A stretch of 13,036 bases of DNA from a virus. Taxonomy: Duplodnaviria > Heunggongvirae > Uroviricota > Caudoviricetes. The position numbers were made by a program, and so were the translations under genes. Below, piece by piece: positions 12,728-13,036 of the stretch (positions within the stretch are counted from its first letter, which is position 1; each line of letters starts with the position of its first letter). The stretch lies in IMG/VR virus record IMGVR_UViG_2724679140_000014; one strand, written 5' to 3'. Under the pieces are notes generated by a model. That model did not search any database, was not told the DNA's origin, and saw only the letters and a list, made by a program, of their open reading frames with translations.

Positions 12728-13036
12728 ATGCTTATGGTGCATGATGACAAAGCGGAAGAACTGGAAGCGAAAGGCTTATGGCGACGGGCGGCTAATCGCT
12801 GGGGTGAGTTACTGAAACAGGCGGCAAGTGATGAAGCGCGCCAGTATGTAACGGAACGACGAACGGCATGCATCCGGAAGGCAACCATAACCCGGGAACC
12901 GGAAAGAGACCTGATTTGTGCCATAAGAACCGCCGCCACAAAAACACTAACGGATATGGGGATCGACCTGAAAAAAGAAGATCCACTGCGGGGCATTCAG
13001 CACGGGCATACAAAGCAGGATAAACGCAGGAAGTAA
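12728..13036 (+). CDS. PerC-family transcriptional activator-like protein (102 aa), second copy in the window
   Basis: N-terminal motif DDKAEELEAKGLWRRAANRWGELL..ERRTACIRKA parallels the 8151-8438 product (SKAEELETKGLYRRAAARWAEVM..KRRAECIRKA); complete ORF with stop at 13034-13036. Confidence 0.6.
   Translation: MLMVHDDKAEELEAKGLWRRAANRWGELLKQAASDEARQYVTERRTACIRKATITREPERDLICAIRTAATKTLTDMGIDLKKEDPLRGIQHGHTKQDKRRK

Follow-up and report, generated by a model that had tools for sequence, protein, structure and literature searches.

A second PerC-family gene at the right edge of a PICI-type phage satellite

The window, that is the whole stretch of 13,036 nucleotides that was analysed (IMG/VR record IMGVR_UViG_2724679140_000014), extends from the first base of an integrase gene to the stop codon of perC2 and covers most of one PICI-type phage satellite. 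The left and central parts are arranged in the order int, alpA, isrK/C4 RNAs, icd-like gene, DUF4222/RgdR-like gene, DUF927 primase with iterons, ssb, proQ and perC1. The right part continues from perC1 with DUF1441, cos/nu1, orf94, orf96 and perC2. The tyrosine integrase (1..1242, plus strand), with the Pfam domains Phage_integrase, Phage_int_M and Arm-DNA-bind_3, was the sole integrase of the window and adjoins tRNA-Pro in L001, the closest related island. The alpA-type regulator gene (1771..1977, plus strand) matched Pfam PF05930 with 33.3 bits. The isrK-type and C4-type RNAs occupied positions 3002-3187. The DUF4222 gene (4120-4434, plus strand; Pfam DUF4222) encodes a homologue of RgdR with 40% identity to RgdR/ECs1581. 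Together with the DUF927 primase/replicase gene (4431-6563, plus strand; Pfam DUF927), downstream of which iterons of the families D17 and D20 were located, it forms the PICI replication module (4120..6563, plus strand). A ProQ/FinO-family gene (7618..8154, plus strand; Pfam PF04352, 86.9 bits) lies after the SSB gene and directly 5' of perC1, the internal PerC gene of the PchE type (8151..8438, plus strand). Its stop codon overlaps the start of perC1 by 4 bp, an arrangement of translational coupling.

The DUF1441 gene (8731-9279) encodes a TerS-like protein. Considered as an Rpp protein, it showed no sequence match to the solved RppC. At the 3' end of the gene, a 29-nt duplication (9247-9275 and 9622-9650) had the look of a recombination scar. 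The lambda Nu1-type small terminase gene (9966..10568, minus strand) was identified by Phage_Nu1 with 227 bits and by the PDB entry 6hn7_B (lambda TerS) with E 6e-38. It is flanked by two cos-like sequences in inverted orientation (9763..10787), whose arms of 80 nt at 9763-9842 and 10708-10787 are 75% complementary. The cos assignment is based on the location 5' of nu1, on the inverted repeat of 80 nt and on the lambda cosB-region sequence. A search for lambda cosN returned a match with two mismatches, GGGCGGAGACTT at 10792-10803 on the minus strand, which is at chance level, with 63 of 200 shuffles giving at least as many. About 1.3 kb without genes (10570-11900) comes after nu1. The first gene of the right-end trio is orf94 (11942..12226, plus strand, 94 aa), which matched PHROG 1561 with E 1e-48. 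Its homologue ECs1599 is the last gene of Sakai Sp7/OI-51, and the dN/dS value against ECs1599 was 0.18. The second gene, orf96 (12329..12619, minus strand, 96 aa), has a terminator-like hairpin downstream (12243..12260, minus strand) and is divergent to perC2. The island has no capsid, tail or lysis genes, only the small terminase and the cos sites. With int, alpA, pri-rep, ori iterons, its size and a dedicated att site, the element in the window showed the characteristics of Gram-negative PICIs and is classified as a PICI by gene content and order.

The open reading frame at the right edge begins with an ATG at 12728 and ends with a TAA at 13034-13036, the last base of which is the final base of the window. 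Use of this upstream ATG would yield a protein of 102 aa. The second in-frame ATG at 12734 was preferred as the start of perC2 (12734..13036, plus strand), giving 100 aa with the N-terminus MVHDDKAEE. This start is favoured by the family alignment, by a GGGA Shine-Dalgarno-like motif 8 nt 5' of it and by RefSeq entry WP_021558663.1, which is identical to the perC2 product and labelled 'PerC family transcriptional regulator'. Pfam family PF06069 (PerC), with a cut-off of 22.6 bits, was matched with 81.8 bits by ORF residues 3-85, covering profile positions 1-82 of 90. PHROG 994 was matched with E 1.6e-25. The length of 100 aa (family approximately 90-104 aa), the N-terminal motif and the RR...C signature agree with the PerC/Pch proteins. 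PerC2 was alignable with PchA, PchD, PchE and PerC, and the residues K6, G14, L15, R17, R18, A19, R22, W23, R43 and C46 were invariant across 22 aligned sequences. Altogether, perC2 was shown to be an intact and selectively maintained member of the PerC/Pch family and is functional by every sequence criterion. PerC2 does not belong to the ANR family (AraC negative regulator; Aar), as the model NF033650 with a cut-off of 32 gave only 19.0 bits (E 9e-4) for residues 6-50. The internal copy perC1 scored 17.7 bits, likewise below this cut-off. Such scores may indicate a distant kinship of the helical N-domain, not membership.

The presence of a second PerC-like paralogue at the right edge, as originally predicted, was borne out. 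BLASTP aligned the products of perC1 and perC2 over 96 aa with 40 identities (42%, E 1e-20), and both passed PF06069, perC1 with 123.5 bits, and PHROG 994. Identities between the two were 37-42% across comparisons. The pairwise alignment that had been proposed as a check revealed true homology and not a short or low-complexity motif. The spacing of about 4.3 kb between both genes, with the cos/nu1 module in between (nu1 9966-10568), was correct as well. The N-terminal motif had been described as the same in both proteins. It is homologous but not the same, since AEELEAKGLWRRAANRW of the edge copy and AEELETKGLYRRAAARW of the internal copy match at 14 of 17 positions, which makes the motifs similar, not identical. 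The C-terminal halves, predicted to be different, are divergent but not unrelated and were still alignable. In the C-terminal half of the alignment (A1), A67, T71, M75 and G76 were nearly invariant and R86 was invariant.

The two copies differed in their affiliation to the PerC groups, which were defined according to PMC7369912 and PMC11773190. PerC1 had 61-63% identity to PchE (Sakai) and 97% identity to the internal copy of island L008. This identity to PchE, together with the shared position after ssb, placed it in Pch group 3 (PchE). PerC2 fell outside group 1 (PchA/B/C and EPEC PerC) with 29-35% identity to PchA and 33-34% to EPEC PerC, and outside group 2 (PchD) with 33-35%. With 46-51% identity and another position, it was not an orthologue of PchE in group 3 either. 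EcCIMP1_025, an experimentally tested protein, was considered as a possible equivalent of PerC2 and was rejected at 40% identity. In the PerC2 type, the C-terminal half ICAIRxAATKTLxDMGIDxxKEDPLRG was kept in homologues down to 56% identity and is thus an old, constrained sequence. PerC2 is assigned to a separate, narrowly distributed PerC subgroup.

The neighbouring gene orf96 has a visible AAGGAG ribosome-binding site and showed dN/dS values of 0.06-0.16. Across Enterobacteriaceae, a profile search identified at least 475 homologues with lengths of 117-131 aa; each is labelled hypothetical and lacks a Pfam domain. Searches with orf96 in Pfam (E up to 10), NCBIfam, PADLOC and PDB sequences gave no meaningful match, and the AlphaFold2 model was unusable with a pLDDT of 46.7. 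The protein shared 53% identity with the product of the terminal EcCIMP1 gene and 54% with the partner of the PerC2-type gene in the distantly related island L021. This large, uncharacterised family marks the right ends of PICIs. In other PICIs including EcCIMP1, the orf96 homologue is the last, inward-facing gene of the right end with no PerC gene adjacent, which identifies orf96 as a right-end core gene with perC2 beyond it in a cargo slot. The divergent pair of orf96 and PerC2-type gene was kept at 54-59% amino-acid identity.

The intergenic region between orf96 and perC2 (12620..12733) was 96% identical in four islands. It contains the perfect 12-bp palindrome GACAGTACTGTC (12641-12652) beside a TACAAT sequence (12654-12659). 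The palindrome was found once per island, was invariant in eight loci and was always located just upstream of orf96. In distant relatives, the flanking TCATACAATAAGC was kept and a palindrome of other sequence was present at the same position. This co-variation of palindrome and orf96 suggests that the orf96 protein may bind the palindrome, although a DNA-binding role of orf96 is a guess from its sequence pattern and the palindrome. In island L019, orf96 retains the palindrome and is separated from the PerC2 variant by another gene, showing that orf96 and perC2 can be uncoupled. A scan for the sigma-70 consensus detected no promoter upstream of perC2 and none downstream in L001. Manual readings of TACAAT and TTGATA-17-TTGTAT as promoter elements are speculative. 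An integrase arm site in the upstream region of perC2 was considered for AGCTATACG, which matches the arm-like repeats close to attL and attR of L001. It was unconserved in L002 and L003 and was attributed to chance.

Of 5,426 complete E. coli genomes, STEC276 with island L001 came closest, with 98.3% identity and the same gene order. L001 is integrated at tRNA-Pro proL between yejM and yejO, with host genes on both flanks. The 3' end of tRNA-Pro, AATCCTCTCGTGCCGACCAAA, forms attL (11773-11793), and a single repeat, AATACTCTCGTGCCGACCAAA, forms attR beyond perC2 (25917-25937), so that the att cores are approximately 14.1-14.2 kb apart. The island boundaries were drawn from this 98.3%-identical relative, as the window's own attL and attR fall outside it. 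L001 has one integrase and one attL/attR pair, with arm-like repeats near both ends. The att core, allowing up to three mismatches, was detected neither inside the window nor between perC1 and perC2. One integrase, one att pair and no internal core mean that, in the closest relative, a single att-bounded island holds both PerC genes. Delimitation of the element by att repeats, which had been suggested as a check, hence yielded a single pair enclosing both genes in L001. Between perC2 and attR, L001 carries a second, Sp7-type ori-like iteron block with 81% identity to the Sp7 origin. This block characterises the right end as a recombination patchwork.

The perC2 region was present in 46 complete E. 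coli genomes and was chromosomal in all of them. The allele had at least 97.7% identity in these 46 genomes, followed by variants with 82% (3 genomes) and 67-75% identity (about 15 genomes). Altogether, perC2 and its variants occurred in 64 of 5426 genomes, compared with hundreds of genomes with related islands. Eight islands with perC2 or an 85%-identical variant were inspected, namely L001, L002, L003, L007, L008, L009, L010 and L019. They occupy five integration sites: proL/yejO, cspD/clpS, tqsA, tRNA-Gly near actS, and yifB. The PerC2 protein was 99-100% identical in seven islands, six of them other than the present one. The trio of orf94, orf96 and perC2 was the final module before host DNA in all eight islands, with an extra gene inserted in one. 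The internal PchE-type copy was present in six of the eight, located after ssb/proQ also in L003, L007, L008, L009 and L019, and was absent from L002 and L010. The middle parts of the islands varied, with Nu1 and DUF1441, a major capsid and decoration protein, a protease-capsid fusion or a full capsid-forming set. The latter, in L009, comprised portal and both terminase subunits, and the trio directly followed terL. The comparison of neighbourhoods advised in the original prediction thus found both PerC types together in single islands at several sites. The distant relatives L021 and L022 (dinD and roxA/pepT sites) held three PerC genes, with cargo genes before the right end. Their set consisted of an internal copy, a PerC2-type gene with 59-71% identity to PerC2 and a third gene with 57-61% identity to EcCIMP1_025. 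Several PerC paralogues per satellite are common, each type in a fixed position. The slot of perC2 is one in which cargo such as toxin-antitoxin, YeeE and nan genes accumulates.

A search of 1.84 billion cluster representatives returned 123 family members at E <=1e-3, a handful of which were near perC2. Plasmid and phage collections contained no match to PerC2 above 47% identity. In species-representative genomes outside E. coli, no PerC2-type gene was detected and PerC relatives were only 35-45% identical. Among the carriers are isolates without a LEE that came from livestock, poultry, wildlife and water, and a role of perC2 is therefore not limited to LEE control.

For the PerC family, no solved structure was found. 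The AlphaFold2 model of PerC2 comprised four helices, of which the three N-terminal ones were confident with a pLDDT of approximately 90 (residues 1-50). The fourth helix was less confident and was followed by a disordered basic tail, and a helix-turn-helix was absent from the model. Pch, including PchA, is an anti-silencer of H-NS/StpA/Hha complexes at LEE1 (PMC4764244). PchE repressed curli and adhesion and raised flagellar expression (PMC7369912), and EcCIMP1_025 represses LEE1-lux in Citrobacter rodentium (PMC11773190). For the PerC-like genes of EcCIEDL933 and EcCICFT073, Porter 2005 as cited in PMC11773190 is given as the source for no effect on LEE1. The functions within the family thus differ between activator, repressor and no LEE effect, and the function of PerC2 is not transferable by homology. 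Of the PerC-type activator in the original prediction, the affiliation to the PerC family was retained, but the activator role is not established, as members include a LEE1 repressor and LEE1-neutral proteins. Based on the Pch/PerC literature and the predicted all-helical fold without helix-turn-helix, PerC2 is most likely a small all-helical modulator of transcription or the nucleoid that would act via protein or nucleoprotein contacts. Its action would be similar to the relief of H-NS/StpA/Hha silencing by Pch. The gene perC2 probably has a promoter region of its own and is expressed separately from the AlpA-driven operon with perC1, and orf96, acting at the conserved palindrome, may control it. 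Within the island, perC2 fills the cargo slot between the inward-facing orf96, as the last core gene, and attR.

Sliding identity profiles showed that perC2 and its 5' region form a block of approximately 480 bp with 94-100% identity between islands, its limits lying at the orf96 5' end and about 40 bp beyond the perC2 stop. The left flank was 70-80% identical and the right flank was unalignable in some island pairs. The DNA of perC2 was 98-99% identical between islands, with dS values of 0.03-0.07, 0-1 non-synonymous changes and dN/dS of 0-0.10. For orf96 and orf94, dS in the same pairs reached 0.55-0.96. The block was near-identical although the islands differ in integrase, att site, replicase and packaging or capsid module. 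This pattern fits a recent exchange of the cassette among satellites and purifying selection acting on the PerC2 protein. A near-identical cassette in otherwise different islands identifies the two copies as old paralogues united by modular recombination. The evidence points to perC1 and perC2 as old paralogues of different modules that were joined by recombination between satellites. Modular shuffling of old paralogues within one PICI-type island, instead of a local duplication or two elements, is considered the likely origin of the pair.

Both origins offered in the original prediction, two adjacent mobile elements or duplication and diversification within one element, fitted poorly and are considered unlikely. 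With two adjacent or nested elements, the part from nu1/cos2 to perC2 would be the remnant of a second satellite or prophage with its own PerC gene. The orientation of nu1 and its cos, inverted against the main operon and enclosed by cos-like inverted repeats, would agree with such a remnant, as would the non-coding DNA after nu1, the second ori-like iteron block next to attR in L001 and the scar-like duplication at the DUF1441 3' end. However, there is a single integrase and a single att pair with no internal att core within three mismatches, and both PerC types recur within single islands at other sites. The trio also ends single islands at five att sites, including the complete capsid-forming PICI L009. 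Moreover, orf94 is terminal in Sakai Sp7 too and orf96-family genes are terminal in other PICIs. The right-hand genes accordingly represent core right-end parts of this class of island and do not stem from a second element. Satellites have likely recombined in the past, which constitutes mosaicism and not tandem elements, and a second element in the window is very unlikely. A recent duplication of perC inside the island, followed by rapid C-terminal divergence, would account for two family members on the same strand 4.3 kb apart and for the N-terminal 50 residues being far more alike than the remainder. It was judged extremely improbable, as the copies share only 37-42% identity and each is much nearer to genes of other islands. 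In addition, homologues with as little as 56% identity still keep the PerC2-type C-terminal half, the edge type occurs without the internal copy in L002 and L010, and some islands hold three distinct PerC types.

Besides the preferred shuffling of old paralogues, the role of perC2 allows different readings. In the life cycle of the satellite, perC2 could counter-silence the AT-rich island, regulate excision or packaging jointly with orf96, or act against the helper phage. PerC-family genes are indeed common in PICIs of LEE-less strains (avian, wildlife, ETEC, environmental), perC2 has a conserved core gene of the right end as its partner next to attR, and perC1 lies within the replication operon. 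Yet perC2 is absent from most PICIs, and this rarity indicates that it is dispensable for the life cycle. It resides in the slot where cargo accumulates, and no PADLOC defence model matched it, leaving a life-cycle role rather unlikely. An arrangement of orf96 and perC2 as a portable two-gene regulatory switch at the cargo end of enterobacterial satellites, in which orf96, as a hitherto unrecognised DNA-binding protein, would control the PerC modulator via the palindrome and the PerC paralogues of an island (PchE, PerC2 and EcCIMP1_025 types) would have distinct or opposing effects on H-NS-silenced host genes, is unlikely too and is put forward tentatively. If such a switch existed, host programmes of virulence, motility and adhesion could be adjusted by a resident satellite.

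In pathogenic E. coli, PerC/Pch proteins connect mobile elements with the regulation of virulence, adhesion and motility. The satellite-borne copies are the least understood; none of those tested so far activates LEE1, and one is a repressor of it. The two or three anciently diverged PerC types that satellites routinely hold, each at a set position, and the cassette of approximately 480 bp are candidates for an influence of satellites on host expression. The gene itself is already annotated in RefSeq as a PerC-family regulator and matches published descriptions of Gram-negative PICIs, and its arrangement recurs in many E. coli islands and is fairly ordinary. Modest novelty lies in the PerC2 subgroup and its spread as a cassette, in the set positions that up to three PerC types hold per island and in the conserved association with the orf96 family. 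The second PerC homologue refines rather than changes current knowledge.

Gram-negative PICIs carry RgdR and PerC variants and have accessory genes at the 3' end (PMC6092414, PMC3378721). As in the present island, PICIs of the EcCICFT073 type have a left integrase, alpA, pri-rep followed by iterons and a size of approximately 14 kb, and they share the dedicated att site, two cos sites, RgdR/DUF4222, PerC variants and 3' accessory genes (Fillol-Salom 2018, 2019; PMC6092414, PMC6739421). EcCICFT073 itself has cos1 and cos2 (PMC6739421). In contrast to this type, the present island has its own TerS of the lambda Nu1 type, a DUF1441 TerS-like protein and isrK and C4-type RNAs. EcCIMP1_025 of the PICI EcCIMP1 from E. 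coli MP1 is likewise a PerC-like gene, located near the right end of an island whose final gene is of the orf96 family. To our knowledge, it is the sole right-end PerC of a PICI with an experimental phenotype. It shares 40% identity with PerC2 and 52% with PerC1 and corresponds to the third type of L021 and L022 (57-61%). Its repression of LEE1 is not transferable to PerC2, which is a different PerC type.

EPEC PerC (pMAR2) and PchA/B/C of EHEC are group 1 activators of LEE1/ler and share the motif KAExLExKG[LF][YW]RRAAxRW...RR..C and the size with PerC2. They are located on a plasmid or on lambdoid prophages, whereas PerC2, with 29-35% identity to them, is located on a satellite. Their activation is demonstrated, and anti-silencing by Pch (PMC4764244) is the best available mechanistic model. 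The nearest named relative of PerC2 is PchE (ECs1588; 46-51% identity), a group 3 PerC homologue of O157:H7 Sakai Sp7/OI-51/EcCIEDL933 and of the same Pfam family. The satellite of PchE resembles the present island with int, alpA, RgdR, primase, ssb and perC. At its right end, Sakai Sp7 has no gene at the position of perC2 and stops at ECs1599, the orf94 homologue. Compared with pchE, perC2 is located beyond the last core gene beside attR and has its own upstream region, and its product has another C-terminal half and a basic tail.

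The gene orf96 (window 12329-12619, minus strand), the divergent neighbour of the edge PerC-family gene perC2, belongs to a protein family with at least 475 members of 117-131 aa that occurs across Enterobacteriaceae. Its homologues included the proteins P0147-P0268 and the loci L020:8037-8396 and L023-L026:6001-6360. The family lacked both a Pfam model and any annotation. A gene of this family was the final gene, inward-facing and adjoining the right attachment site, in several PICIs, one of them EcCIMP1 of E. coli MP1. The orf96 family may represent an unrecognised core gene of PICI-type satellites.

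Some related satellites carried three PerC-family genes, one internal and two in tandem past the orf96 homologue (right-hand regions L021:12023-13570 and L022:11849-13598). Cargo lay beyond the PerC genes in satellites of this type, for example a gene for a YeeE/YedE transporter, one for antiterminator Q, or a nan (sialic-acid) gene cluster. In the related E. coli island L019, a stretch with many repeated CTCCTCAC/TTCCTCAC motifs took the place of the sequence upstream of the 85%-identical PerC2 variant (L019:9740-10000). Genes for a PemK toxin and a SocA/Panacea-domain protein lay nearby.

In the closest complete genome, STEC276, a second ori-like block was located approximately 700 bp downstream of perC2 and outside the window (L001:25451-25604). 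It comprised GCGGGTTAT-type iterons with an AT-rich core and shared 81% identity with the Sakai Sp7/OI-51 replication-origin region (L004:7936-8089). Downstream of the primase gene, the island has an origin of its own, whose iterons are of a different type (GGGACAA). The related island L003 lacked the block and was otherwise collinear. The block could be a recombination scar or a route to replication by the initiator of another satellite.

Within the window, an 80-nt inverted repeat with 75% complementarity formed a cos-like pair (9763-9842 and 10708-10787) on either side of the Nu1-type small terminase gene. Because this inverted repeat flanks the gene, the gene and one cos are oriented against the main operon. 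Part of the cos/Nu1 region appeared reversed in the related island L008, suggesting inversion between the cos-like repeats. The DUF1441 protein gene (8731-9279, plus strand) matched PHROG 141 (terminase small subunit; E 2.5e-55), and the island thus holds two distinct TerS-like genes, DUF1441 and Nu1-type. No sequence match of the DUF1441 protein to solved RppC or lambda TerS structures was found. The final 29 nt of its gene (9247-9275) recurred 375 bp downstream (9622-9650) with 93% identity, probably marking an earlier recombination junction.

In the left half, strong adjacent Rfam matches to isrK RNA (3002-3078, plus strand, 80 bits) and C4 antisense RNA (3100-3187, plus strand, 75 bits) were located between alpA and the icd-like gene. 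The ORF listed across them (1982-3433, 483 aa) is probably not a gene. Together the two RNAs make up an immunity-type module of the P1/P7/P4 type within a PICI-type island. The DUF4222 protein (4120-4434, plus strand) was 40% identical to RgdR (ECs1581). The RGD motif of RgdR is reportedly important for type III secretion activation; the window's protein has PGD at this position.
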